A stretch of DNA of 64,000 bases from Candidatus Bathyarchaeota archaeon (GCA_963806535.1 CAWDYC010000008.1:1-64000); one strand, 5' to 3'; shown: positions 33,006-57,586, numbered from the stretch's first letter. Notes: generated from the sequence alone by a model not told the origin. Program-made: numbers and translations.

Positions 33006-34014
33006 TTACCGCCTCCCTCCAAACATTCTACCAGGAGCCTTGACGAGTTCTTCAGCTCGAATTCTTTTGCCAGTGTGCTTCAAAAAGACATCATCAAGCG
33101 AAGGCGAAGAAAACGTTACTGACGTAAGCCGAATGTCGCTGCTGTCTAGCGCGCGTACTATATCAGCAATTAGCAGACCTGCGTTTTTGGCGAAAACAGT
33201 AAGGCATTCTTCAGAATCCACAATTTCACTGACACCAGTCATTGATTTGATGATTTCTTTTGCTTTAGCGCTGTCTTCTTTGCAGTTTTCAAGAACAACT
33301 CTGATGGAGTCTGCGCCAATTTCACGTTTTAGCTCGAGTGGTGAGCCGCTTGAAACTATTTTTCCTACATCAATAATTGAAAGTCTTTTACATAGCTTAT
33401 CGGCTTCTTCTAGGTACTGCGTAGTTAGAAAAATTGTTATTCCTTCTTCTTTGTTTAATTTTTCCAAATAACTCCAGATGGCTGAACGGGATTGCGGGTC
33501 CAAACCAGTAGTAGGCTCATCTAAGAAATAGGAGTTTGGGCTTGTGAACCAAAGCAGTGGCTAGGTCCAGACGTTTTTTCATGCCGCCAGAGTAGTTTCT
33601 AGCGCGTTTTTCGGCGGCTTCTTCGAGACCTACGAGAACCAAAAGTTCGTTAACTCTTTTTTTGATTTCATCTCCATTCATCTGGTGGAAATGACCTTGA
33701 AGCGTGATATTCTCTCTTCCAGTAAGGTCACCGTCCACGGTTGTTTCTTGGCTTTGAACCCCAATGATCTTACGGATAGTGGCCGATTGTTTATCAACAT
33801 CATATCCAGCTATCGAAACAGTGCCAGATGTTTTCCTTAGAAGTGTGGTTAGAATCTTGATCGTGGTGCTTTTTCCTGCTCCGTTAGGTCCAAGAAAACC
33901 AAAGAATTCTCCTTCAGCCACCCTAAAAGAGATGTCATCAACCGCTTTGGTACCGTCAGAATAAACTTCAACCAGATTCTTTACGGTAATAATGTCGTCC
34001 ATAAACCTAACCAC
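33006..34014 (-). CDS. ABC exporter ATPase (DrrA-like), frameshifted near 33520
   Basis: GPNGAGKST, YSGGMKKR, DEPT.GLDPQSR across two ORFs, PSLDDVFL. Confidence 0.9.
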
Positions 34015-34121
34015 AACTAGTTTTGCAATTGATAAAATAACTATATGTGATTGCTAGCTAGCTACAACAGCGAGAAAGCGTAAGAGCAAAATAGAATTTC
34101 ATGGAGACGTTTTAATTCTAT

Positions 34122-42430: not shown

Positions 42431-42777
42431 TTTCGGACATATTATTGTATATTATGTATTGATAATCAATAATCATTAATATAAATCTTCCTAAGTGAGT
42501 AATTAAGCTACTCAAACCCGCGATGCCTGAGAACTTTCCTTTTTGAGGTGAGTCTTATTTTGGAACATATCGTCGTTTTGTGACTCATGTTTGAAACAAC
42601 ATTTGTTTATTTACAAAATGAATATTTTCTTATTAAAGAAAGGGACGGCTTTGAAGAAGGACAGCCAAGTTACCATCAGAATAAAAGATATGAATGATTG
42701 TGTAGAATCTGACATAATGACAGTTTAGACCATCTCTGAAAACTTTAAGAAAGTAAATTTGAAACCATCCCTAAAAT

Positions 42778-43488
42778 TTGGTTGATCGTGAAAAAATGTT
42801 TCGTCAAAAATTTGAACCATTAACTGAGGCATTTATTGCGGCACTTAACGAAGAAGAAGGCGTTGGGGCAACCATATCTGAGTTGTCAGAAAATGTAAAT
42901 TTGCATCGTATTCTGGTAATTGATGGTCACAGTGTTGATCGGACAGTTGAAGTCGCTAAAGATCATGGCGCAGAAATCGTTTTTCAAGATAGAAAAGGCA
43001 AGGGCGATGCATTAGCTAAAGCCGTTGAAAATATGGGCGAAAACGTAGAGTACGTTGTTATCACTGATGCCGACTTTACATATCCAGCATTCTATGTTCC
43101 AGAAATGATTGAAATACTGAAAGATTTACCAGAAGTAGGCATGGTTTGCGGAAACAGATTTAGCAAAGAGACTGAAGGAAAAGCTTTTCAGGGCAGGTTT
43201 TTGTTTGGAAACAAAATGCTGGCGTTTGCTCACAATCTTCTTAATGGCGTAGATTTACAAGATCCATTGACAGGGTTAAGGGTTATACGTGCGGATATAT
43301 TGAGAAAGTGGATAATTAAATCCAAAGGTTTTGACATAGAAGTAGAGTTAAATCATCAAGTATACAAACAAGGATTCAAAACACTCGAAGTACCGATAGA
43401 GTATCGCGAACGATTAGGCGAAAAGAAACTCAAAATGAAACATGGCGTAACGATCTTGAAAAGAATTATTTACGAAAGTTTCTATTAG
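42778..43488 (+). CDS. GT2 glycosyltransferase (DPM1-like)
   Basis: ALNEE, DG.S.D.T, GKG.A, DAD and GFDIEVE motifs. Confidence 0.92.
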   Translation: MVDREKMFRQKFEPLTEAFIAALNEEEGVGATISELSENVNLHRILVIDGHSVDRTVEVAKDHGAEIVFQDRKGKGDALAKAVENMGENVEYVVITDADFTYPAFYVPEMIEILKDLPEVGMVCGNRFSKETEGKAFQGRFLFGNKMLAFAHNLLNGVDLQDPLTGLRVIRADILRKWIIKSKGFDIEVELNHQVYKQGFKTLEVPIEYRERLGEKKLKMKHGVTILKRIIYESFY

Positions 43489-43855
43489 TTATTTTTCCAA
43501 GAGACTTTGAAAGTTTTCATTTGAACTGGATTTTCTGGACAAGTTTTTAAGAAATACTCTAATAATAAGAAAAATTGAACATTAATGCCTTTCGTAAATT
43601 AGATTTGGCGCAGGTTTGGCCTGGAAGATCAAGAAGCAGAGTTTTTTTGACATCAGTGGTGCGTTGTTCATAATTAGTTGATGTGTTAGTTTTCAACATT
43701 ATGCCTTCATAGGACAGGCAACGCCGGAACAAATAATTAATTTCGCGGAAGCCTTAGCAGAAAGCGAATAAAGATATTACGGTTTTGGAAATATTACGTG
43801 TAACAGAATACGGCTATTATATATTAATACTTAATATGAAATCAAGGCGAATTGA

Positions 43856-44248
43856 ATGTTCAACACATACGAAAAAGATCTTGACTTAGATTCAGATAAA
43901 ATAGCCTCAAAGGCAAAAACGGTCCCCCAAAAACTCGAAACACCACAAACAACCGACCGATCGAAACAAAAAGATTATCCACAATTCCAGGACTCATCAA
44001 GTTCAATTAATGATTTAGACCTTTTGGCCGCTCTACAAAAAATGAAAGCAGAAGAACAAGAGCTTCTAGAACAAAAACAACGCCTACTAGCAACAGAACA
44101 AAACCTTCACAGCAAACTCATCAAAGAAATGGATAAAAAGAAAACAGCCATCAACAACCTAAAAACCGAAATTCCAGACATCATAAACAGATGCAATGAC
44201 CTATCACAAGCTCTTGGAGCGCTAGCATCTGAAACTAGCCCTACGTAG
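43856..44248 (+). CDS. Coiled-coil protein (paralog 1)
   Basis: SSINDLDLLAALQKMK.EEQELL...INNLKTEIP shared with the next gene. Confidence 0.75.
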   Translation: MFNTYEKDLDLDSDKIASKAKTVPQKLETPQTTDRSKQKDYPQFQDSSSSINDLDLLAALQKMKAEEQELLEQKQRLLATEQNLHSKLIKEMDKKKTAINNLKTEIPDIINRCNDLSQALGALASETSPT

Positions 44249-44312
44249 TCAGATTTTTTGCATTTCCGGATGTCGAACTATGATGTATTAACGGACCGGA
44301 TAATTTGAGTGG

Positions 44313-44798
44313 ATGATAATGGGCAAAGAAAACGAAAATATCAACATATTCATAATAGAAGATGATTACCGAAGAAGCAAAGCAAAACAAAATGCTCACG
44401 ACGATTTATCAAGAAAACCGGAGCCAATAATACTAAATAAACAAAACCATGAATCCGTAATTCAAGAATTAGAAAAAATGCATTCAAACTTCGAAGCGGG
44501 TCAAGAGCCTGAATCGCTTCAAGAAACTGAAGTAACCAAACAAATAAACCCTTCCCAAATTGCTGATTCACCAAGTTCAATAAACGATTTAGAACTGTTG
44601 GCGTCTTTGCAGGAAATGAAAACAGAAGAACAAGAGCTTCTGAAACAAAAACAACGCTTACTATCAAGAGAGCAAGACCTTCGCAACAGACTCGTTAAAG
44701 AGTTAGACAGAAAGAAGACGACCATTAATAATCTAAAAACCGAAATTCCAGCCATCACAAACAGATGCAAAGGGCTCTCACAAGTACTCGGAGAATGA
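44313..44798 (+). CDS. Coiled-coil protein (paralog 2)
   Basis: Tandem paralog with a closely similar C-terminal region of about 75 aa. Confidence 0.75.
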   Translation: MIMGKENENINIFIIEDDYRRSKAKQNAHDDLSRKPEPIILNKQNHESVIQELEKMHSNFEAGQEPESLQETEVTKQINPSQIADSPSSINDLELLASLQEMKTEEQELLKQKQRLLSREQDLRNRLVKELDRKKTTINNLKTEIPAITNRCKGLSQVLGE

Positions 44799-45306
44799 GC
44801 AGGTAAAAGCTCAGCGCGACTAATGTTTTGATCTTCAAAAAATAATGTCTAATGGAAACAACGCCCTTACCATCCATCTTAATTTTGATATGCACAAATC
44901 ACTGGATGGCGATAAATACGAAAAGCGTTAGAAAAATCTTACGGAACAGCTGTTCCAATACCAAAATGCCTCATTAAAAAGCAAGTACAAAAAAAGAAAA
45001 TTACCTTCTAATTGCATTTTTACATAGAAAAAATTGAGGACCTTGAGTTTCGTCTAAACTGCTATTCTACTTGCCGAAACCATATACTGTGTAGGTTTTC
45101 ATATTAATTTCCCATTATTTTGTTAGGGACTGATTAAGTCTTCTAGCGCCTAAAAGCTATAAAATTTGTCATAAAAAAATTGCTTTTTGTAAATCTGGGT
45201 ACTCCTCTTTTTTTCCAAAGCTAACTCAAATTCAACTATTCAAGGATCAATTTTTTTTGTGATTTTTCTAAGTAATTTCATGAACCTTGTCTATTTTGTC
45301 TTTAAT

Positions 45307-45429
45307 TCAATCCGTTGAACGATATTTTCCGCAATACCGATAAGGACCATAAATGCAGGTTTTGCTTTCAGCCTGATAAAGACTACAAACCTTGCGGTTT
45401 GGGCAAGCGCCAAGAACATGGTTTAACAT
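45307..45429 (-). CDS. 40-aa Cys-rich microprotein (not in ORF track)
   Basis: MLNHVLGACPNRKVCSLYQAESKTCIYGPYRYCGKYRSTD, four Cys. Confidence 0.45.
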   Translation of the reverse strand: MLNHVLGACPNRKVCSLYQAESKTCIYGPYRYCGKYRSTD

Positions 45430-46036
45430 TTGCTGGGCTGATTTCAAAATCGCGCCTCTTAAGTCGTCCTCACTTGCATTAAACTTCGTTTGTGTTTTTA
45501 AGGCGTATTTCGATTACTGAAATATGTCAATGCCTAAACTAGAAAAAGTGCTGCTCCAAATTTCTTACCTCAACGTTTCAGGCTATTGAGAAAATATATA
45601 CAATTGTAGGCGAGACCTCTTGATTCACTAAAGCTTAAATTTGTTTTTTCCTGAAATACATTACTTAGGCAATTTAACTATGAAGACAGTGGATATCGTT
45701 GGTATTGCGGGATATTGCATAGCCATAGTTGTTTTCTTTTGCCCGAAGTCTCTTCCTTCATAAATATTCTGAACTTTGTTTTTAGAGTTCCAATCATTTT
45801 GGCTTTTATAGTCACACCTCTTAGTCCATCAATATATTCACGTTATCTTAGGCCGAAAGAAATTTCAGATAATTACCCCTTCGACCCCTTCACCTACTAT
45901 CCAAGTCAGTGTGAATAGACTTGTAAATGGAGATGTTCCTTGCATTCAAGAGTTTTTTCCGCATCTTCTTTGCCACTACAGAAACGCTAAATAAAGACAT
46001 GAACATGAACTATCAAGACGGTCGCTGAACCAGAAA

Positions 46037-46070
46037 AATCCATGTATTTGCGGTTGTAGTCTAGTTTGGT
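46037..46070 (+). repeat. 34-bp direct repeat (33/34) with 48090..48123
   Basis: aatccatgtat[t/g]tgcggttgtagtctagtttggt. Confidence 0.9.
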
Positions 46071-46095
46071 TTAGCACTTCTCTGCCGATATTGAC
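46050..46095 (+). pseudogene. 5' relic of tRNA-Gly(GCC)
   Basis: The first 21 nt are identical to the tRNA at 48103. It decays through CTGCC and has no T-arm or 3' acceptor strand. Confidence 0.8.
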
Positions 46096-46227
46096 ATTAA
46101 CTTTTTCGTGTTTTTGCCTCTCTTTTTTTTCTATTTAGGATCAGAACTAGAAAAGATGAAGTCAAGTTTCAAAATTGGGGAAACAAATCCGCAAATGTAT
46201 ACAAAGCAAATCTTAATAACAAGAAGC

Positions 46228-46249
46228 AAAACCAAAAAGCACATAAATA
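46228..46249 (+). promoter_or_regulatory. BRE/TATA promoter of tRNA-Gly #1
   Basis: aaaaccaaaaagcacataaata, identical to 47997..48018. Confidence 0.75.
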
Positions 46250-46354
46250 GCTCCCGAGTCTGAAACAGCGGCGACACGACACCAGCGATTGAATAACGCC
46301 AAGACGAGAACCATAGTTTATTAAGAAGAATTTAGATTGTTGCGTTAAGCCACT

Positions 46355-46431
46355 GCGGTAATAGTACAGCTTGGTTAGTACATAGGCTTGCCAAGTCTAG
46401 GACCCGGGTTCAAATCCCGGTTACCGCACCA
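46355..46431 (+). tRNA. tRNA-Gly(GCC) #1, CCA encoded
   Basis: Acceptor GCGGTAA/TTACCGC, D-stem GTAC/GTAC, anticodon arm TAGGC-TTGCCAA-GTCTA, T-arm CCGGG-TTCAAAT-CCCGG, ACCA. Confidence 0.93.
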
Positions 46432-46450
46432 AACTTCCAGTTGAGTTCCT

Positions 46451-46846
46451 TTATTTCTTGTCGGCGTGGCGTCTCAAGATTTCCAAATCGCTTTTTTTAG
46501 GTTTTTTAGTGTGTTCCAAGTTTTCCAAGTCAAATTTGTCGGTGACGTCTTTGAATCTGTGACCGCATTTGATACAGTCGAATATTTTGATGGTGACGAA
46601 TCCAGCGTAGCCGTCGTGCTTCCAGTCACGATTTACGCATCCAGCGTATCCGACAAGCTGCCAACTGGGGGGTTGAATTGTGTCACAGTGGGGACATTTG
46701 ACTTCAAGGGCTTCAACGTACCGACTATATTTCTTCCGTAGATATTGTCGGTTCGTAGCTTGGTCGTTCAGGTTTTCTATCAGTTGATTACGTTTCATTG
46801 TGTCTGGTTCCTTTTTCCGCACGGCTCTGATAACTGTCCGTTTCAT
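46451..46846 (-). CDS. Zinc-ribbon hypothetical protein
   Basis: CPHC...CIKCGHRF. Confidence 0.65.
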   Translation of the reverse strand: MKRTVIRAVRKKEPDTMKRNQLIENLNDQATNRQYLRKKYSRYVEALEVKCPHCDTIQPPSWQLVGYAGCVNRDWKHDGYAGFVTIKIFDCIKCGHRFKDVTDKFDLENLEHTKKPKKSDLEILRRHADKK

Positions 46847-46911
46847 TTCGGGTGCTTAACAGCTTCGGCTTCTTTTGGTACATCTTCGCCCTCAAAGGAA
46901 AAATGACTAGT

Positions 46912-47101
46912 GTGAAGCTGTGGTTTCGCCTTTGCGTTCTGAAACAGTTTTCTTGATGTTCAAACGACTTTGAAAGTATATTGCGAAACGGCGGTATCGC
47001 TATTTTTCTAAATGACGCAACTGTGGCTTCGCAATAGACGCCTTTTTGTCGTTGCTGACATTACGAAGTAATATTCTGATAAGGAGAAACGGTGGTTTCG
47101 T
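46912..47101. repeat. Four imperfect 18-bp palindromes, consensus GCGAAAC-N4-GTTTCGC
   Basis: 46912 gtgaagctgtggtttcgc; 46983 gcgaaacggcggtatcgc; 47015 acgcaactgtggcttcgc; 47084 gagaaacggtggtttcgt. Confidence 0.75.
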
Positions 47102-47170
47102 GATACAGTTACGGAATCCGCAACAAACCTTTTAAACCGAAATTGACTGAAATGAATCTGCGATGCAAAA

Positions 47171-47737
47171 ATGGGTGCTGATTCTGGTTCGGGAAAGGGA
47201 AAAACAGGTGAAAGCCCAAAAGCTGACGACGGAAAAATGAAATGTCTGCTTGACGGGCGAAGAAACTGTATAGTTTTCTTTAAGAAACCCGATTGGGTGG
47301 GTGCTAACTGGTTATGTATTTGTAGGAACTGTCCTAAGAAAGGCTATTCTTTGGATGCTGCAAAACAATTAGAGTGCCGTCAGCAATACGAAGAACACAA
47401 GAACCTGTATCCCTTCGATTATATGCGACCTGACATTTCTGTTGAGGATCACGTAAGAGGCTTAGGGTTTGAACCAGACTTGATTCCAGATTTAGTTCGA
47501 GAAGAAGAGGCGATTGCAACACTCGTCAAGAACCTTCATGCAATAATCGGAAGCAAATTGGGAAAAATCGACAACAAGCTTCTATTCTTCATCATCGAAC
47601 TAACCGATTTAATGGTTCGAATGCAGAAAAACGGATGTAAATTACCCGAAAACGTCATCGACTATTTGCTAAAAATGCCTGAATTTCTGTCAGAACTAGA
47701 AAAGTGTAAGAAAGATGGAACTAGACTGCAGGGCTAG
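47171..47737 (+). CDS. Hypothetical protein with Cys-rich N-terminus
   Basis: CLL....C...CICRNCP followed by a helical domain; 188-aa ORF. Confidence 0.65.
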   Translation: MGADSGSGKGKTGESPKADDGKMKCLLDGRRNCIVFFKKPDWVGANWLCICRNCPKKGYSLDAAKQLECRQQYEEHKNLYPFDYMRPDISVEDHVRGLGFEPDLIPDLVREEEAIATLVKNLHAIIGSKLGKIDNKLLFFIIELTDLMVRMQKNGCKLPENVIDYLLKMPEFLSELEKCKKDGTRLQG

Positions 47738-47996
47738 GTCTCGGTTACCGCACTTTCCTCATTTCAGATTATTCCAATTCAAACCTTTCTCAAGCACTAT
47801 AAGTCCTCTGGAAATATGTTCAGCTCTTTAAGATCTACTTTGGCAGTTCACCGAAATTCATTAACAAATGGCTTTAGGCTGACGAAAAGGAACTCAAGCA
47901 GTAAACGATGGTTAGCAACTGGCAAGAGAAGAGAAAATCACCTATACCTCTACAAGAAATAAGTCAGGTCAGCGGCAACAATAGACCCCGATTAGG

Positions 47997-48018
47997 AAAA
48001 CCAAAAAGCACATAAATA
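47997..48018 (+). promoter_or_regulatory. BRE/TATA promoter of tRNA-Gly #2
   Basis: Identical 22-mer to 46228..46249. Confidence 0.75.
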
Positions 48019-48102
48019 ACAGCACAATCCATCACATCAGCGACTCGACGTCAAGGTGTGTATAACGCCAGAGGTTGTAGTTCAATAAGAATCCATGTAT
48101 GT

Positions 48103-48180
48103 GCGGTTGTAGTCTAGTTTGGTCTAGGACATCAGCCTGCCACGCTGACGACCCGGGTTCAAATCTCGGCAACCGCACCA
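48103..48180 (+). tRNA. tRNA-Gly(GCC) #2, CCA encoded
   Basis: Acceptor GCGGTTG/CAACCGC, anticodon arm TCAGC-CTGCCAC-GCTGA, T-arm CCGGG-TTCAAAT-CTCGG, ACCA. Confidence 0.95.
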
Positions 48181-48257
48181 AAAACTTCTCCAAAACTGCG
48201 TAATCTTAACTTTTGAGCATAAAACAATCAAAATTAATCAAGCACTTCAATTCAAAA

Positions 48258-49208
48258 TTACTTCATTAAGAGCTCTTTGCCTTTTTCAAAAACATACGCG
48301 AATTCAGCATAAATTCTGAGGTAATAAGCCCAATATCCTTTCCACTTTCCGTATTTCTCTGCAATCTCACATACCTCGTCATTTGTAGCTTGTTCATCTT
48401 TTCCGCCATAAATTCGGCCGACATCTAAAGCAAGCTGTGGATCCACGTTTGACAGCTCCTCCATTCGTCCCAGACCCCGTATCATTATAAAGTTGGCTGA
48501 CCAATCGCCAATACCTTTGATATCCGTTAACCAGTCATGTACCTCATCATAAGGCCCTGATCTAAGCCATTTCTCATCAACCTTAGAGAATGCTTCAGTA
48601 ACGGCTGATAGGTACTCTGCTTTTCTCTTATTTGCCACCAACACGGGCTGTTCGGCCAATGCGGCCGCCAGGTTAGACGACTCAGGAAAAGAATGATATT
48701 CAACGCCTTTGACGTCAATTTGACCGCCCACTCTATTGACAATGTTTTCTTTCATTTTATGAGCTACAGCCATAGGTATCCGTTGAGCTAGAATTGCCCA
48801 ACATGCAATTTCAAAAGGAGTCAAGAACTTTACTTGTTTATGGCCATAAAATTTTTTGACTGCGGGTTGTATGTAATGGTCTTTTTGGGCTACTGCGTAA
48901 AACTTTTTCAAGTTGTCTTGAAGGCTTAGAAAGAAACTTATCCTATCGGCAATCGACTCCTCAACTTCATCTGTAAACTTTGCTTCAGAGTAAGCCGTGA
49001 ATGCTAACTCTGGTTTTTCAATAGTTCCCTTGCCCGATACCTCAAATGCGATGGTTCTTCCATTTGCTTGTATGGCTTTTGTGAAAGTAGCGCTTTTTAC
49101 GTCTTGTTCATTTTTCATTGGACTAAAATCAGAGAGAAACTCTAATGATTTTGAGAAATCAAAGGGGGCAACAGGATTTAAGATACTCTCAAAAGAATAA
49201 AGATTCAA
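48258..49208 (-). CDS. alkA: DNA-3-methyladenine glycosylase II (AlkA-like, HhH-GPD)
   Basis: TPFE...WAILAQ, FPE, HhH IKGIGDWSA, catalytic D (NVDP), W.GY.AYYL. Confidence 0.88.
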   Translation of the reverse strand: MNLYSFESILNPVAPFDFSKSLEFLSDFSPMKNEQDVKSATFTKAIQANGRTIAFEVSGKGTIEKPELAFTAYSEAKFTDEVEESIADRISFFLSLQDNLKKFYAVAQKDHYIQPAVKKFYGHKQVKFLTPFEIACWAILAQRIPMAVAHKMKENIVNRVGGQIDVKGVEYHSFPESSNLAAALAEQPVLVANKRKAEYLSAVTEAFSKVDEKWLRSGPYDEVHDWLTDIKGIGDWSANFIMIRGLGRMEELSNVDPQLALDVGRIYGGKDEQATNDEVCEIAEKYGKWKGYWAYYLRIYAEFAYVFEKGKELLMK

Positions 49209-49280
49209 GAAAAAACACCTAATTTAGTGTTATTAAAACCGATATTTTAAAGAATCGCATGATAGACGCAAAGCTGTTCA

Positions 49281-49308
49281 GGTTTGCAACTCGGCAGCCG
49301 CATCAAAA
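49281..49308 (+). repeat. Degenerate copy of the tRNA-Gly #2 3' end (att-like)
   Basis: ctcggcagccgcatcaaaa vs ctcggcaaccgcaccaaaa (17/19), preceded by GGTT at the T-loop position. Confidence 0.7.
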
Positions 49309-49758
49309 TCCTTTTTCAACCTTCATTTATTTAAGCCGTATAAGGATTGAATCTAATCATAAAGTCTGATTTATGAAGGATATTAAGTCAAAACCGCAAA
49401 AACTCCGCTAAAACTAAACTTGACAAACTTTGTTAAGTTGGTTTGGAAAATTCTTTCCAAAGTTGACAATTAACGTTAATGAGTATTTCAAAAAGCTATA
49501 AAACAGATTAAGTGACCTATGCAAATTATGAAATTGCACGCGAAAATAGAAAGAGTGAAAATATACAACTTGGCGAAAAAACATTTGGTAGCTATTCATA
49601 GAAATTCAAAAAACCACTACGCTATGCCTTATTGTCACCTTCATATACATTTTTTAAAATTTGTTCTCCATACAATTTTCTCATAAGGTGAAGAGAAAAT
49701 TTTCCATGAAGCTATTACGAAAGGACGTTTTGTAGGACGTTCGATTCTATTTCAAGAA

Positions 49759-51583: not shown

Positions 51584-51853
51584 TTATTGTTTTGCCCCAT
51601 CGCCTATACGAATAGCTTTTTGTTTTAAATCATCTGTTGCGTAGAGTTCAATTTTACCGCAATTTGGACAAACAAAAACATACATGGGAACCATTGTTTC
51701 GCCAACTTCCGCCCATTCTCCGAAAAGCAGCTTCATTCCGCCGCTCGTTCCACCAACTCTGAAATTTGCCGTATAAACATATTGAGCATTTTGCCCACAG
51801 AAAGTGCATTTTCTAATGTTTGCGCTCATTTGGTTCGCCTGTATTAATATCAT
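51584..51853 (-). CDS. Zinc-ribbon protein
   Basis: CTFC...VCPNCGKIELY. Confidence 0.7.
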   Translation of the reverse strand: MILIQANQMSANIRKCTFCGQNAQYVYTANFRVGGTSGGMKLLFGEWAEVGETMVPMYVFVCPNCGKIELYATDDLKQKAIRIGDGAKQ

Positions 51854-51955
51854 CTTTTTCTCGTAAATAAGTACAATTGTTTCTGTGTTGGTTCAAAATA
51901 ATGTTACCTTTTTTAGAGACGGCTGCCGATTAACCGTTTAAGGGGACAAAATATT

Positions 51956-52207
51956 ATGACTGAAGGAAAAATTGAGCAATTAATTAAGCAAAAAAGGGCT
52001 TTTTTGAAGTCATCAGTAAAGGATTATTCTGCAGGCGGTAATGACATGCTTGATGATGTTGGAGCACTGATTGAAGAGGCAAAAGCAGAAATTACCAATC
52101 GACTGGACCTTGCAAGCTGTTTAAAGGAAGAGTCAGAAGTGGCTTGGCGCAAAGAATGCATTTCAGTATTCGAAGATTGGCTTGAAAAGTGGTTCGGTAA
52201 ACCCTAA
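51956..52207 (+). CDS. Hypothetical helical protein
   Basis: GGGGA RBS; ends in WLEKWFG. Confidence 0.6.
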   Translation: MTEGKIEQLIKQKRAFLKSSVKDYSAGGNDMLDDVGALIEEAKAEITNRLDLASCLKEESEVAWRKECISVFEDWLEKWFGKP

Positions 52208-52261
52208 TTTTTCAAAAATCATCTTAGTCAACCAGTAAGGTTTTTCAGCGCGAGGCTAAAT

Positions 52262-53267
52262 ATGGAAAAAGAAAAGCCCAATAAAGCACTCAGCAAAATC
52301 AAAGTTATTCCTTTGGCAGCCGAAAGCTTCGGTGTCCGATCCATGTGCACAATGGTAGAAACCCCAGACGTTACCTTGCTTTTGGATGCTGGAATATCAC
52401 TTTGCCCCTACCGATTTGGCTTGCCGCCTCATCCAATCGAGTTTCAGACAATAATTAGATTGCGCAAAAAAATAGCTGAAGCCGCAAACAAAGCAGAGGT
52501 TGTAACAATCAGTCATTATCACTTTGACCATCATACGCCATCATTCGAGGATTGGGTTGTAAACTGGACAGAAGCAAATGAAACCGCACAGCAAATTTAT
52601 GAGGGAAAAAAGGTGCTTATGAAAAATCCCCGGGACAAAATAAATGCTAGCCAAAGGGAAAGGGCGTGGGTTTTCCAAAAGACAGGAGGCAAATATGCTA
52701 AGAAGTTGGAATCGGCGGATGGAAAAGCATTTGCTTTCGGCAGTACACTTGGTGCGATTTTCTGAATCTGTGGTTCACGGCTCTGACGATGCGATGCTCG
52801 GTTGGGTGATAATGGCGATAATTGAGCATGAGGGTGAACGGTTCATGTTTGCACCTGACATTCAAGGACCAATGTCAAAGCATACGTTTGAGTTGATTTT
52901 GGAGGCGAAGTCAGACCTTATTATGCTTGGTGGACCGCCTCTTTATCTTGCAGGTTCAAGAGTTGACATGAATCGGATTAATGAAGGCTTAAGCAATTTA
53001 GAAGGCATTGTGGAAGCGGTGCCAACAGTTATTGTTGAGCATCATGCGTTACGAGACGAGGCTTGGAAGCAAAAAGCAATGTCTATTTATCTGAAAGCTC
53101 AGGCCACGGATCATAGAGTTATGACTGCAGCAGAGTACATAGGTAACGAAAACTTCTTCTTGGAATCCAAGCGTAAGCAACTCTATCTTGATTTTCCACC
53201 TTCAGATGAGTTTAAGCAGTGGATGAAGACATTAAATAATGAAAAAATCGCGAAACCGCCAATTTAA
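52262..53267 (+). CDS. UPF0282/COG2248 metallo-beta-lactamase-fold hydrolase, frameshifted
   Basis: AAESFGVRSM, SHYHFDHH, DIQGP, GGPPLYL and HHALRD motifs. Confidence 0.88.
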
Positions 53268-53279
53268 GGATGAAAAGCT

Positions 53280-53959
53280 TTGTTTGAATTGAGTTTAGCC
53301 GCTTTTATTGCTTCATTTGTATTGGTTGTTTTGGCGGAGATGGGGGATAAAACCCAATTTTTAGCTATGTCTTTCGCCACTCGACACAACGTCTACAAAG
53401 TAATTCTCGGAATCTTCTATAGCCATTGTCGCCTGTTTTGCAATAACTGTAGCCGTAGGTCAATTCTTAACAACAATCATACCCATCGACATAATATCGT
53501 TAGCTGCTTCACTTTCATTCATCGGTTTCGGCTTATGGACCATTAGAGGAGACAAACAAAAAGTTGAGAATAAAAAACCTTCTCGATTTGGAGTTACTCG
53601 CAACCGTAGCCATAGCATTTTTCATTGCGGAGTTCGGCGACAAAACCCAACTTGCAACCATCAGTTTAGTTGCACAATACCAGAACGCAATAAGCGTTTT
53701 TGTTGGAGCGTCCATTGCAATGTTGGTTGCTGATGGCTTGGGAATAATTGTCGGAGTAGTTTTTTGTAAGCGAATTCCAGAGCGGACTTTCAAGTGGCTT
53801 TCAGCAGTCAATATTTGTGATATTCGGGTTAATTGGTTTATATGAAGTTCTGCCTGCCAAAATTGGATTAGACTACACGGCAATAACTCTTGTTGTACTG
53901 ATTGTTTTTTCAGTCTCTGCAATGTTGATTCTGGCAAGAAAACAAAGAATAACAAATAA
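53280..53959 (+). CDS. TMEM165/GDT1 (UPF0016) Mn2+/Ca2+ transporter, frameshifted
   Basis: Two EMGDKTQ/EFGDKTQ motifs. Confidence 0.9.
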
Positions 53960-54209
53960 TTCGCAGAAAGCATAACCTTGCAAGGATCCAAACACCAATA
54001 ATAAAAGCCAAATCTAAAAAAAATTCGATAGAACAAAATGGTCAGCCTTTTATAGAATTTTAAAAATTAAATTTGGCAAATGCAGACTTAACCTAACGCA
54101 AACTAAAATTTTCGGAAGAGAGAGGGGGAACATGGCGCTTGCGTTTCAGTTAACCGTTGATTTGCCAAAACGCTTCAGATTTTTTTAGAATCCTATGCGT
54201 TTTCTACAC

Positions 54210-54975
54210 TTAATAGTGTGGCTTTGCAATAAAAATTGATGTGACTGTACTAGCACTACAACAAGTTACAACGTGTTTTTTAGGTCTTCGAATGGGCATA
54301 AGGGCAGCTTTCGCAGCACCTTTTTTTGATGTTGATGTTCTAGGCTTTAACATGACAACGGCTTTCTTCAGATCCAAAGGAGTAATTATCCTAAAGAACG
54401 TTTTGAAATCTGGATCCAACTGCTCAATCACCATCGTTGACATGTAGCGAACCCCATGCAATCTATCAACTATAGCTTCTACATCACGCTCACCGTTTGC
54501 CAACGCTTCTTTAGCAGCCTCCAAAGCCAACTTTAGTATTATAAACGGCATGCAAAGCTTCAACCTCACAATCAGGCGATCTTGCAATATCCGCTGATTT
54601 GCCCACGCCACAATCAAAAAGCAAAGTCACCACATCTTGGGAAACAAATGGGGAATCAAACGGCAAAAGCAATGAGTATTTTCCCTCAGCCGCTTCAAAA
54701 CCTGCCAAAGCAGCACCTAAAAGCCCCATTGATTCATCAGCATCACAAACAAATCTAACCTTAGGCGAAACAATTTTAGCGTACGAATCTGCGCGTTCTT
54801 TCGAGGTGGTGACAATAATTATTTCTTCAGCAATGCCTTTCACAGCATCAACAACATATTTCAACAAGGGCTTATTATCCAGAATCAATAACCCTTTGTC
54901 TTCCCCGAATTTGCTCGAGGAATCAACTGCTAAAATGATTACTGATTTATCCAAACAGCAAACGTCTCCAACCAT
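54210..54975 (-). CDS. mobA: MobA-like molybdenum cofactor guanylyltransferase, frameshifted
   Basis: IILA...SSKFGEDKGL, G.LG, DSPFV and EALHAVY motifs; the LAGG loop is degenerate (LAVD). Confidence 0.75.
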
Positions 54976-55036
54976 AAATTACAAAACAAGTTAAAAAACA
55001 TACGGAGAAGAAAAAAGAAAAAGAAAATGCTTTTTA

Positions 55037-55820
55037 CTAGTTTACTTCGTTGTCTTCTATTTTTCTTGCCATTTCAGCCAATATCTTCGTGAATGGGTGG
55101 TCTGGTTTGTCTTGAACGAAAATCAGGTTTCCTTCAGCTCGTAGTATCTCACAGAAGCAGGGTAAAATGCCGAGCATAGGGACTTGGTATATCTGTTTTT
55201 ATTTTGGCAGCCATTTCAGCTTTCTTAGATGTTGCTGAGGGATCAAGTACCTTGTTCATGACTAAGCCTGTTTTCTTCTCAAACAGATTGTATAGTTCTT
55301 TTAGCATGCGTTTTGTTCCGTCTACGTCAGAGCGGTCGCCAGTGGTTGCTACAACTACGAAGTCAGCTGCGACAATAGCGTTTATTGAGGAATATTGTAA
55401 GCCTGGGCTTGTATCAAAGAACAAGTAATCGAACCCTTGTTCTCCAATCAATGATTCTCTGAGGGCAAGGAGTCTGCCTAAGGCCCGCATTTCCCATTTG
55501 CGATCTTTTGAGGACATGTCACGAATTGCTTCAGTTGCGGGATTTGCTAAACCAGCATAGAACTTTCCGTTGCCAGATATTTTGCTACTTAAGATCTAAT
55601 AAGTACATTGTCAACATCGGCAGTTGCTGTTCAAATAATCGTTAAACCAAACTTCAGAGTTTTCAGCTTTTAATATGGCAAATAAGCTTGGTGCTCTAAA
55701 GTCTAAATCGAAAATAGCAACTTTTTTGCCATCTTTAGCAAAGGTTGCGGCTAAATTGACTGATAGAAGTGTTTTTCCTGTTCCGCCTTTATATGAGTGT
55801 ACTGCGATTATTTTTCCCAT
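55037..55820 (-). CDS. MinD/ParA-family ATPase, frameshifted
   Basis: Deviant Walker A KGGTGKT, DLD, DTSPG and NK motifs. Confidence 0.88.
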
Positions 55821-55826
55821 AATATC

Positions 55827-56210
55827 TCAACCTTGTGTTTCCCTATCAATGAAAAAATACGCTTTTCTTCCCTTGCGCTCTTTTTTAAGGTAACCCATGA
55901 TTACGAGCTGATTAAGATACGCGCTTTCTACTGCTCTTGCTCGACTTGTTTGCCCAGCGATTTCTTCAGCCGTTGCTCTTGCGCATCTGCAAATTGCCAT
56001 GGCTGTTTTTCGCAGGTGATCAGGCATCGAGAGAAGTGTCATAACATCAAGAGATGCATCAGGCAGACCAGGCGCAGACTTTTGATTGTCACTGCCAGTT
56101 TTCTGAATTTCAATAATAACTTCCATCTTATCATTTAACCGCTCAAGACTTTCTTCAATCTTTTCAAGAATATTCAAAGGTCTTTTGGTTATTGCTTGAT
56201 CTTTAATCAT
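55827..56210 (-). CDS. Winged-HTH regulator with N-terminal coiled coil
   Basis: ATAEEIA..T.RARAVESAYLNQL..MGYL...RKGRK.YF. Confidence 0.8.
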   Translation of the reverse strand: MIKDQAITKRPLNILEKIEESLERLNDKMEVIIEIQKTGSDNQKSAPGLPDASLDVMTLLSMPDHLRKTAMAICRCARATAEEIAGQTSRARAVESAYLNQLVIMGYLKKERKGRKAYFFIDRETQG

Positions 56211-56374
56211 TAATTACCCTCGAAGTGTTTTGCAGGTATACAGATAGTGACTGAAAACTGTTTATTAAGTATTACGATACAGTAATACTGATTTCAAAAC
56301 AAGAAAAAAATCTATTCATCAATTTTGCAAGCTAATAAATTAATTAAATTAGAAAACAAAACAAGAAAAAGTGT

Positions 56375-56719
56375 TTAGTAGGGAATCATTACTTGACTTC
56401 TTGCTTCCTCTACTATGGGTAAGACTTGTTTTAGCTCTTTGAAGTATTTCAGAACAGTTATTCCTCGTTGTGAAACGGCGTAAACAACCCGTCGTTTTCC
56501 AACGGTACGTTCTTCAACCAAGCCTTGCTTTATGAGAAAATCAAGATATTCCTTGAGGACACTGCAGTTAACGTTAGCTTTGTACATTACATGTGTTAGC
56601 TTTAGCGGTCCTCTTTGTGCCAGAACTGAAAGAATATCGACATACATTTCTAGTTTTGAACGACGCACTTCTTTATTCCTCTTGTTTTCTCCACTATTCA
56701 TGTTTTTAATATAAATCAT
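56375..56719 (-). CDS. Archaeal winged-HTH regulator (HTH_45-like)
   Basis: RRSKLEMYVDIL...THVMYKANVN...YLDFL...GLV. Confidence 0.88.
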   Translation of the reverse strand: MIYIKNMNSGENKRNKEVRRSKLEMYVDILSVLAQRGPLKLTHVMYKANVNCSVLKEYLDFLIKQGLVEERTVGKRRVVYAVSQRGITVLKYFKELKQVLPIVEEARSQVMIPY

Positions 56720-56759
56720 TTATGTATTACTAATCTGCATATAATCCATATGCACACTG

Positions 56760-56939
56760 CTAATTATCGGCTTTTCTGCTTGCTTGGTTTAACACATTTA
56801 ATCTATTTTCGAATGCAGTAACCATGTCATCTAGCAATATTTCACGCAATTCTGTCGTCAATCCGTTGATTTCCGAATGAAAAACATCAGCTAATTTAGA
56901 TTCTATTTGTTTCCGATCTTTACTTGGAATTTGTTTCAT
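56760..56939 (-). CDS. 59-aa helical protein (not in ORF track)
   Basis: GGAGG RBS; MKQIPSKDRKQIESKLADVF...ILLDDMVTAFENRLNVL. Confidence 0.65.
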   Translation of the reverse strand: MKQIPSKDRKQIESKLADVFHSEINGLTTELREILLDDMVTAFENRLNVLNQASRKADN

Positions 56940-57391
56940 TTACTTTCCTCCAAATTATCCTTAGCACCCAATTAGTCGAACGGTATTTAACTAACTTATG
57001 AAGCCAATCTATGAATCTAAAATTAATACTAAAAATAAGAAACGTGAAAGTTAACGGCAAGCATTTTCGACGGTTCTTATCTCAGACCATACATCATGTG
57101 AAGCAGTGTAGTTGTCTGAATTTTATTTTAAGTGCGAATTTCAGCACCATAAATTTATTGCAAAATGCACCAATTAAGCGTAAAACAGATTGTTATACAT
57201 ACAATTCGTCGATTGCAGATATCATTTTAAAAGAAGTTGTTGTCGTTCAGCAATCACATATTAATTTAAATGTGCTTGAGTATCATACTGCAGCGAAGGC
57301 GCAGATTTACATGCCACCATAACGTAGTTTTAGGAAGTTGGTTTTTATATGTTAATTTCTAACTAAGGAGAAATCTTGGAAAGTCCTGCTT

Positions 57392-57586
57392 ATGAAAGGA
57401 TACGTTCTAAATGATCAAGTAAGAGCTGAACAATGTGAAAACTGCAAATCAAAAAGTCAGGTATTAACAACTAACTTTAGCAATCCTAACTTGTTTTTGT
57501 ACGGATGCAAAGACAGCAAATGCAGGCATAGACTTTTGCGGCTAGATTTTGATTTAGAAGAAATTCCTCAAATTGCGAACAGCTAA
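57392..57586 (+). CDS. Small zinc-binding protein
   Basis: CENC...CKDSKC. Confidence 0.5.
   Translation: MKGYVLNDQVRAEQCENCKSKSQVLTTNFSNPNLFLYGCKDSKCRHRLLRLDFDLEEIPQIANS

Follow-up and report, generated by a model that had tools for sequence, protein, structure and literature searches.

A tandem tRNA-Gly(GCC) pair as a probable integration hotspot with integrase-less remnants and an orf188 mini-element in a Bathyarchaeota genome

The window analyzed here is a stretch of 64 kb of contig C8 from a Candidatus Bathyarchaeota archaeon. It contains two neighboring tRNA-Gly(GCC) genes, tRNA1 and tRNA2, each followed by a short downstream copy of its own 3' end, a relic of a tRNA 5' part upstream of both, and an insertion of 1,307 bp behind tRNA1 that we refer to as the orf188 mini-element. 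The locus was compared across 120 species genomes of the genus, the own genome and 119 congeners. Genes for tRNA were called with ARAGORN and Rfam, where the gathering score for tRNA is 29, integrases were sought with PF00589 (cut-off 27.1) and PHROGs, other protein families were assigned by Pfam, and the chance expectation for copies of the 3' cores was taken from 100 shuffles of the window. Positions are those of the window, and features lie on the plus strand unless noted otherwise. The genome has a TFIIB-type factor, a family B polymerase and tRNA introns in archaeal style. In the genus comparison the tRNA pair is bounded by conserved gene blocks that end near 34083 and 51841-57550, and between these blocks the content differs from genome to genome, with the hotspot occurring in empty, filled, deleted and accreted states across the 120 species. 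No relic resembling an attachment (att) site was found where the variable region begins on the left, near 34.1 kb.

Both tRNA genes are ARAGORN calls and score well above the Rfam threshold, tRNA1 (46355-46431) with 67.0 bits and tRNA2 (48103-48180) with 64.8 bits; they are 77% alike. The promoter and leader of tRNA1, U1 (46225-46354), is 84-93% conserved before tRNA1 in congeners and recurs before tRNA2 as U2 (47994-48102), the second copy of the tandem arrangement, with 73% identity over 77 nt (46225-46301 against 47994-48070). This repeat, together with about 60 nt further upstream, precedes both tRNA genes in relatives (G023, G021, G241, G321 and G292). The two genes are only 125-140 nt apart in G023 and G021, and G241, G321 and G292 show the order U1-tRNA1-trailer-U2-tRNA2, or U2 followed by the relic. 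The trailer, post1, is native to tRNA1 and lies at 47754-47993 in the window, but directly behind tRNA1 in congeners with an empty site. An earlier note, made from the sequence of the window alone, had described the locus as a 'cassette-capture platform' built of repeated promoter-leader-tRNA-cargo-att units. As the promoter-leader stands before both tRNA genes in relatives, including congeners free of cargo, the promoter-leader-tRNA unit is instead an old tandem duplication and no part of a cargo unit. Two observations on the pair in other genomes may be added. In G016, G010, G007, G004 and G292 (loci L022, L023, L025, L026 and L085) tRNA2 carries a non-canonical intron of 27-29 nt after position 31-32 in the anticodon stem, which the window tRNA2 does not have, and in G283 (locus L051 on G283:C5) two copies of tRNA1 with the same variant trailer (..ACCGCACTCAAATAATTCCAG) lie in opposite orientation about 2 kb apart, suggesting that the hotspot has undergone an inversion or duplication.

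The last 15 nt of tRNA1 before its CCA (46415-46429), the attL core, return with 14 of 15 positions as att1R at 47739-47753. At up to one mismatch these are the only two sites in the window, with 0.00 expected from the shuffles, and they are closest to each other, sharing GGTTACCGC exactly. In the 2.95-Mb assembly the 3' cores of tRNA1 and tRNA2 occur only in glycine tRNA genes, at the two att sites and in one match with two mismatches at C4:102781. The 1,307 bp enclosed by the repeats (46432-47738) are absent from ten congeners: an empty site was seen at six of the 15 tRNA1 loci examined (G023, G021, G020, G016, G010 and G024) and in addition in G292, G300, G241 and G321. In these, tRNA1 ends with ..GGTTACCGCAC, and TGTCATTATTTCAG..TTCAAACCTTTTTCAAGCA, which is homologous to the window sequence beginning at 47754, comes directly next. 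With tRNA1 joined straight to this homologue, 46432-47738 is therefore a real insertion with a duplicated target. Note that the empty sites pass directly from ..ACCGCAC to TGTC; the native tRNA1 thus has no encoded CCA, and in the window the CCA comes from the insert.

The mini-element comprises orf131 (46451-46846, minus strand), coding for 131 aa with a CxxC..CxxC pattern that may be a zinc ribbon, a conserved non-coding stretch (46903-47139) with three CTGTGGTTTCG-like words starting at 46914, 47017 and 47086 and a 30-nt inverted repeat, and orf188 (47171-47737), coding for 188 aa, whose stop codon lies 4 nt before the att core. Its DNA finds matches in six of the 120 genomes, the own one included. 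The left end CCAAwCTTCCAGTT follows tRNA1 in the window, G307, G315, G303 and G001 and is also present on L108, a metagenome contig from the Joint Genome Institute (JGI). In G307 and G315 the whole element measures about 1.1 kb and ends with orf188, stop and core. Further copies were sought in sequencing data, where 11 runs matched with a best share of sampled words of 0.09; four soil or wetland runs were used in the form of Logan contigs, which stem from other populations. orf131 is limited to the window copy, being absent from the copies in G307 and G315 and uncovered in the contigs of the four runs. When the copies are compared, other sequence stands in place of the orf131 region, the non-coding middle has 47-70% identity and only orf188 is well conserved, with 88-90% identical nucleotides. 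Of all parts of the element, the non-coding stretch persists in the largest number of degenerate copies (G283, G303, G001, G012 and G307).

Neither orf131 nor orf188 has a Pfam or PHROG family, and neither was found in any of 200 other genomes sampled from the family. The orf188 product has a Cys-rich N-terminal and a helical C-terminal part. Its best score in the ESM Atlas was 0.84, below the usable range, and against 1.84 billion representatives it gave seven matches at E <= 0.001, namely its own cluster, three short fragments and three long repetitive proteins that matched through many short stretches. An AlphaFold model reached a mean predicted local distance difference test (pLDDT) score of 54.2, and Foldseek found nothing in the PDB at E <= 0.001. 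In viral_contigs there was no relative of orf188 and no exact match to the left-junction (attP-like) word, and a scan of genome_contigs yielded relatives only in two metagenome-assembled genomes titled Candidatus Bathyarchaeota. orf188 is thus an ORFan, an open reading frame (ORF) restricted to this lineage. Its position and orientation beside the core match those of integrase genes, it is kept in all complete copies, none of which holds a known integrase, and the Cys-rich N-terminus is putatively DNA-binding. These features would suit an autonomous mini-element in which Orf188 acts as a new small site-specific recombinase or a recombination directionality factor. At 166-188 aa, however, the proteins are too small for a tyrosine recombinase fold, and no motif or family match and, from the poor model, no fold match was obtained; we consider this role very unlikely.

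Behind tRNA2 a single gene precedes the second repeat. It codes for an AlkA-like DNA glycosylase of 316 aa (48258-49208, minus strand) and lies with its own promoter in a conserved block (48251-49257). The product matches the 3-methyladenine DNA glycosylase in PDB entries 2jhj/2jhn with E 1.7e-19 over residues 37-303 of 316; its score for Pfam HhH-GPD, 21.2 bits, is below the cut-off of 26.2. The junction att2R (49276-49305) is composed of an element-side arm, GTTCAGGTTTGCAA, and a 16-nt copy of the tRNA2 3' end (49290-49305) that agrees with 48165-48180 in 14 positions. Only these two sites exist in the window at up to two mismatches, and the shuffles lead us to expect 0.01. The repeat reads GGCAGCCGC and differs in one position from GGCAACCGC in tRNA2, so that each of the two 3' repeats is indeed closest to its own upstream tRNA, as had been proposed.

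The arm is not peculiar to the window. In three congeners its counterpart GTTyAGrTwTGCAA is joined to CTCGGCGACCGCA, and the combination of arm and core occurs at 18 sites in 16 of the 120 genomes, with none for the reversed control. In genomes with tRNA2 and the motif on one contig, the latter lies downstream in the same orientation, at 1.1 kb in the window, 2.9 kb in G321, 4.5 kb in G020 and 12 kb in G290. The interval holds small ORFs in G321, a phosphofructokinase and a phosphoenolpyruvate (PEP)-utilising enzyme in G020, and regulators, a TIR-domain protein and a polyprenyl synthetase in G290; no Pfam integrase was found in these intervals. We read the motif as the right-hand junction of a single family of elements that has specificity for the 3' end of tRNA2 and whose bodies have decayed and been replaced, and the alkA segment looks like a decayed remnant bounded by this recurrent attR motif, not like a mobile cassette. 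Five further congeners have alkA at 75-80% nucleotide identity and a sixth at 67%, each time as a block of about 1 kb of gene and promoter. In G009 the gene sits 115 nt past tRNA-Leu(TAG), again in convergent orientation, the genes of G001 and G012 are frameshifted, and in the closest relative, G013, only a 92-nt 3' remnant is left behind tRNA2, the 450 nt between the two having no repeat at their borders. A kinship between the arms of att1R and att2R was considered and rejected, as the CTGCAG part of the att1R arm is the end of orf188. Past att2R, at 49411-49513, a stretch of about 100 nt with an internal palindrome (TTTGGAAAATTCTTTCCAAA) occurs once in this genome and in 45 of the 119 congeners at 71-93%, with up to five copies per genome; it could be a repeat resembling a miniature inverted-repeat transposable element (MITE), a conserved small RNA or a regulatory element.

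A third scar lies upstream of tRNA1. The relic (46034-46080) consists of a 16-nt leader and the first 31 nt of a tRNA2-like gene and forms the core of a 5'-side att scar. It is 89% identical over its 47 nt to 48087-48133, and 34 of these, which the earlier note had recognized as a repeat bracketing the tRNA1 unit, are 97% alike. It is followed by what we call the X tail (46081-46140), made up of a degenerate palindrome (consensus TGTCGAyATCGACA), TTCGTGTTTTTGC and a T-run; in the tail consensus the palindrome is followed by TTCGTGTTTTTGCG and then by the T-run. Upstream of the relic, the S-type region (45976-46033) carries a AAACGCTAAATAAAG box resembling a promoter, which overlaps what is left of the final codons of an integrase (..YRNAK-stop); these codons, at 45976-46006, are the only integrase trace near the locus. 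For comparison, G292 reads U1-tRNA1-post1-U2-relic and tail, then 11.6 kb, then an intact tRNA2. The 11.6 kb encode a DNA_primase_S protein and an integrase fragment of 184 aa (PF00589 with 32.2 bits; phrog_216) that ends 88 nt before tRNA2 and reads towards it, and this is the layout of an element integrated in the 5'-distal part of a tRNA gene. The C-terminal tail of the integrase (GFEYV..YRKAK-stop) is still readable upstream of tRNA2 in G020, G233, G019 and G013 and upstream of the relic in G007 and the window; the S-type region is therefore the decayed right end of a G292-type element. In G013, G019, G020 and G233 it stands directly upstream of an intact tRNA2. The X tail is presumed to be the left end of this family targeting the 5' part of tRNA2. 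In the window the decayed right end, the core and the left-end tail are joined in a junction that resembles an attP or the place where two tandem elements meet.

The arrangement is old, as the distant congener G241 has the window order (S-relic-U1-tRNA1-trailer-U2-tRNA2) without cargo. In G013, about 90% identical in the flanks, the S-type region is joined to an intact tRNA2 and tRNA1 was undetected with the query used. This is the state expected from recombination between the 47-nt repeats, and the 2-kb block with tRNA1 and the orf188 element is thus deletable.

Full-length copies of relic and tail number 23, three in the own genome and 20 in 20 congeners, and they also raise the question of whether the sequence is a functional gene, either for a small RNA that resembles a tRNA 5' half and carries a hairpin and a terminating T-run, or for the 5' portion of a split tRNA. 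The recurrence of the copies, their conserved D-arm-like sequence, palindrome and T-run, and the fact that at sites other than tRNA2 the copies diverge in their 'acceptor' ends and are preceded by unrelated DNA would all be in keeping with such a gene, as would a compensatory change in one of the five hairpin pairs, altered on both sides in three sequences. Against this, RNAalifold predicted the 5-bp hairpin only, with a covariation term of -0.15 kcal/mol, no Rfam family matched, the window copy has a mismatched stem and the tRNA2 copies sit exactly where an attL is expected. Split tRNA halves are known from Nanoarchaeum and Thermoproteales, and the relic resembles them as a tRNA 5' half with an upstream promoter-like box and extra sequence behind it; it differs in that its tail is common to copies with different 'acceptor' ends and its position fits an att junction. 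No matching tRNA 3' half was seen, although no systematic search was made, and the two short 3' repeats have no T-arm. We regard either kind of RNA gene as improbable. The other copies in the own genome are found at C4:438720-438805 and C3:458563-458645, with 'acceptor' ends GCTGTCG and GGGTTG and no tRNA gene nearby; the one on C3 precedes, by about 150 nt, a gene from a multi-copy family of secreted proteins, and genes of this family adjoin such copies in several congeners. The idea that the relic ends at the tRNA2 intron site was rejected, since on inspection of the sequence the similarity seems to extend to the anticodon. The 15 nt that come right after the tail (46141-46155; TCAGAACTAGAAAAG) return without a mismatch at 47690-47704, within the 3' end of orf188 (a search over 30 kb gave BLAST E 0.002); an older orf188-type element may have left this trace, or the match may be due to chance.

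The two tRNA genes, the relic and the two 3' repeats listed in the earlier note are thus all present, the repeats far beyond chance, and the repeats are scars of site-specific insertion of the att type. The note had also named a condition under which its reading would fall, that the repeats be leftovers of plain tandem tRNA duplication, and this holds for the promoter-leader-tRNA unit but not for the short att repeats. In its strict form, with the relic and the 3' repeats left behind by unequal duplication of a tRNA-Gly unit and no integrating element involved, such a history could draw on U1/U2 and the two tRNA genes, which are old tandem duplicates, and on G233, where two copies of tRNA2 lie 850 nt apart. 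It is contradicted by the empty sites in the ten congeners and by the 1.3-kb insert itself, which carries foreign ORFan genes and is flanked exactly by the tRNA end and its copy, with the native trailer behind the copy. Furthermore, the tRNA copy in att2R adjoins an arm of conserved non-tRNA sequence present in 16 of the 120 genomes, and the relic adjoins a conserved non-tRNA tail that in G292 bounds an element with a primase and an integrase fragment. Duplication alone is accordingly extremely improbable. The single serial mechanism advocated in the note is not supported either: the three scars belong to three element families, one of which targets the 5' part of tRNA2.

Four copies of orf188 differ at 8-15% of four-fold degenerate sites, the window copy from that of G307 at 7 of 47 and from that of G315 at 4 of 44. 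Well-sampled flanking genes of the same loci differ at 34-73% of such sites: in G307 the genes with more than 30 four-fold sites gave 26/42, 17/37, 20/37, 27/46 and 12/35 (a sixth gene, 5/11), and in G315 the well-sampled ones gave 20/33, 19/39 and 64/88. Synonymous sites of orf188 are thus 3-6 times less diverged than those of its neighbors, and because its four-fold sites differ so much less, the conservation of orf188 is not just a matter of selection on the protein. On L108 orf188 is 95% identical over 649 nt and the element has the same left end, but lies behind a tRNA-Gly(CCC) gene whose upstream flank is unrelated to that in the own genome. Logan contigs of the four runs cover 46972-47754 at about 95% or more, and several of them keep orf188, stop and core and then diverge from the window; G315 has the same right end with an unlike flank. 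The element has thus recently been common to at least four organisms at two different glycine tRNA genes. Long after the genomes themselves had diverged, it seems, the orf188 module and its att-adjacent end were passed among species and from one glycine tRNA target to another.

No recombinase could be assigned to this exchange. Among the eight places in the genome with PF00589 none lies in 34-52 kb of this contig, nor is there one inside the locus or within 12 kb on either side, and the small ORFs have no Pfam family, which agrees with the earlier remark that no integrase lies within. A helper integrase elsewhere, with an att site matching tRNA-Gly, had been suggested as well and was not found in the assembly. 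An autonomous relative of the orf188 element did not appear in the 120 genus genomes, viral_contigs or genome_contigs. Contig joints, among them those from 46429 to 48051 or 48103, were encountered with sides of 21-36 nt and are probably tandem tRNA genes of other organisms. The predicted attP of the orf188 element would read ..GGCTAGGT, CTCGGTTACCGCAC and CAAwCTTCCAGTT.. in succession, and that of the second type ..GTTCAGGTATGCAA followed by CTCGGCGACCGCACCA.

Taken together, we consider it likely that the duplicated tRNA-Gly pair is a hotspot bearing the scars of three independent events by three element families. What the comparison shows are insertions, empty sites, junction motifs that recur and an orf188 exchanged in recent times; the recombinase type, a mobilization in trans and the order of events we infer as follows. 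The tandem tRNA1-tRNA2 would serve as a hotspot for site-specific integration of the tyrosine-recombinase type in this archaeal genus. One element family would recombine with the 5' part of tRNA2 and would have left the integrase 3' remnant, leader, tRNA2 5' part and tail at 45976-46140; with the intact tRNA2 this junction would make up the 47-nt direct repeat around the 2-kb tRNA1 block, a block presumably lost in G013 by recombination between the repeats. A 1.3-kb element with orf131, the repeat-bearing non-coding stretch and orf188 would have entered the last 15 nt of tRNA1, duplicating them and adding the CCA. It has no integrase and may have been moved in trans or in cis by that of a related autonomous element, a suggestion made because orf188 and the att-adjacent end spread more recently than the genomes diverged. 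A further element would have entered the last 16 nt of tRNA2, of which alkA and the right junction with arm and core remain in a decayed state. The latter recalls a cis-mobilizable element (CIME). Of the tiny non-autonomous elements postulated in the earlier note, the tRNA1 insert thus retains indirect support through the recent spread of orf188, and the alkA segment does not.

A number of observations weigh against this reading, and several of them also speak for decay alone, in which the three scars would be dead remnants of autonomous elements and the near-identity of orf188 the result of homologous recombination, gene conversion or strong constraint. Apart from orf188, the three mini-element copies share only 47-75% identity, a divergence equal to that of the background, and the unit recently exchanged may be the gene rather than the whole element. 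L108 is a longer relative in which orf188 is followed by other DNA and not by an att core, on a contig that ends after 1.9 kb. No copy holds a recognizable integrase, and loss of the integrase after integration is documented for archaea in the excerpts of PMC8371274 considered here. The assembly has no second att-like site and no intact integrase of the G292 type, only short relics beside four other tRNA genes, at C3:472426-472981 for tRNA-Ser(CGA), C3:124972-125037 for tRNA-Leu(TAG), C5:51948-52049 for tRNA-Ser(GGA) and C5:335768-335962 for tRNA-Arg(TCG); scars of earlier integration are thus carried by numerous tRNA genes in the genome. As the segments behind tRNA1 or tRNA2 in relatives (24, 17 and 19 ORFs) were without a Pfam integrase, ordinary decay and homologous exchange could explain much. 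In the contigs of the four runs, which represent other populations (best word share 0.09), no excised circle, empty-site read or attP was found. Orthologues of alkA occur in six different contexts without the motif of arm and core, and for the alkA segment there is no empty site, its flank past att2R having no homologue in the 119 congeners save for the multi-copy repeat of about 100 nt downstream; the scar behind tRNA2 therefore rests on the motif family and the statistics. Nevertheless, decay alone does not account for the 3- to 6-fold lower synonymous divergence of orf188, nor for a right end of orf188, stop and core that meets unlike flanks in G315 and in contigs from other runs. Neither does it account for the element of L108 at another glycine tRNA gene, since homologous exchange needs homologous flanks, and these are not shared there. 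We rate it as a possible but rather unlikely account of the locus.

The best-supported view is an ordinary one, that of tRNA genes serving as an integration hotspot, with remnants that resemble CIMEs and have no integrase; only the orf188 mini-element stands out as interesting. The bolder proposition, that the orf188 unit is a minimal integrative element of 1.1-1.3 kb active today in Bathyarchaeota-like archaea of soil and wetland, made up of a single hallmark gene, a non-coding region with repeats and an att core that matches glycine tRNA 3' ends, and hopping between tRNA-Gly(GCC) and tRNA-Gly(CCC) of different species, either as a satellite dependent on the integrase of a helper not yet seen or with Orf188 itself as a new small recombinase, appears doubtful at present.

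Further observations concern the sequence upstream. At 33006-34014 an ABC-transporter ATPase is apparently divided into two ORFs of 165 aa, one with ABC_tran and the other with the DrrA C-terminal domain, which suggests a frameshift or an assembly error. The segment 37309-39609 has homologues at 66-68% nucleotide identity near tRNA1 in G315 and G283. A 235-nt direct repeat (44000-44234 and 44574-44808; 79%) extends over two neighboring paralogous ORFs of unknown function (43856-44248 and 44313-44798), situated in a 3.5-kb stretch (42474-45975) that is absent from G013.

With respect to known systems, the excerpts of PMC6563490 that we draw on describe for integrated elements of Thaumarchaeota direct repeats of 8-26 bp, att sites with a median of 17 bp, a less frequent targeting of the 5'-distal tRNA region and arrays built by repeated use of a single site, and those of PMC8371274 add integrase loss and tandem integration in archaea. 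As far as these excerpts go, the locus shares with such elements 3'- and rarer 5'-distal insertion, short repeats, re-use of sites and integrase loss. It differs by inserts of only 1.1-1.3 kb with one or two genes and no integrase, by two adjacent isoacceptor genes that each have their own insert, and by three junction families within 3.3 kb. Parts of tRNA genes flank the inserts as direct repeats, 15 nt of the tRNA1 3' end, 16 nt of the tRNA2 3' end and 47 nt of the tRNA2 5' part, as in integrative elements generally, and empty sites are available for the tRNA1 insert in ten congeners and for the 2-kb block in G013. An integrase of its own, by PF00589 or PHROGs, is not encoded by orf131 or orf188. 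Unlike in SSV-type (Sulfolobus spindle-shaped virus) integration, the ORFs at the two ends, orf131 and orf188, have no similarity to an integrase and lie on opposite strands.

A CIME, as characterized in the passages of PMC5704250 used here, retains attL and attR but has lost the genes for integration and transfer; it resides at the 3' end of a tRNA gene and becomes movable when a related element integrates alongside, as in the accretion of islands in Streptococcus. Measured by those passages, the tRNA1 and tRNA2 inserts agree in that both junctions are kept and Pfam finds no integrase. They differ in their archaeal host and the lack of conjugation genes, the orf188 element may never have had an integrase, and mobilization of the inserts is putative. 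Integron cassettes are similar as tiny recombinase-free units with one gene beside a recombination site, mobilized in trans on a fixed platform. In contrast to these, no integrase lies beside the tRNA pair, the junctions are tRNA ends without an attC-like folded site or imperfect palindrome, and the genes have their own promoters. Among the titles and abstracts returned by library searches on integrated elements of Thaumarchaeota and on mobile elements of Bathyarchaeia none describes an archaeal mini-element of this kind, which does not by itself show its absence from print.

Hotspots at tRNA genes and decayed islands without an integrase are textbook matter, so most of what is seen here is ordinary; the overall phenomenon is known, and the orf188 mini-element appears to be a novel form of it. 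Its unusual traits are a size barely above one gene, clean att junctions and signs of recent spread in an archaeal element without a recombinase. Should it indeed be mobilized in trans, archaea would have in it an equivalent of the CIMEs, satellites or integron cassettes of bacteria, and it would offer a handle on the helper integrase and the att rules in Bathyarchaeota, a group without genetic tools. The locus that the comparison of relatives has revealed as very variable, as anticipated, is in any case a compact natural series for the growth and shrinkage of tRNA-linked islands.

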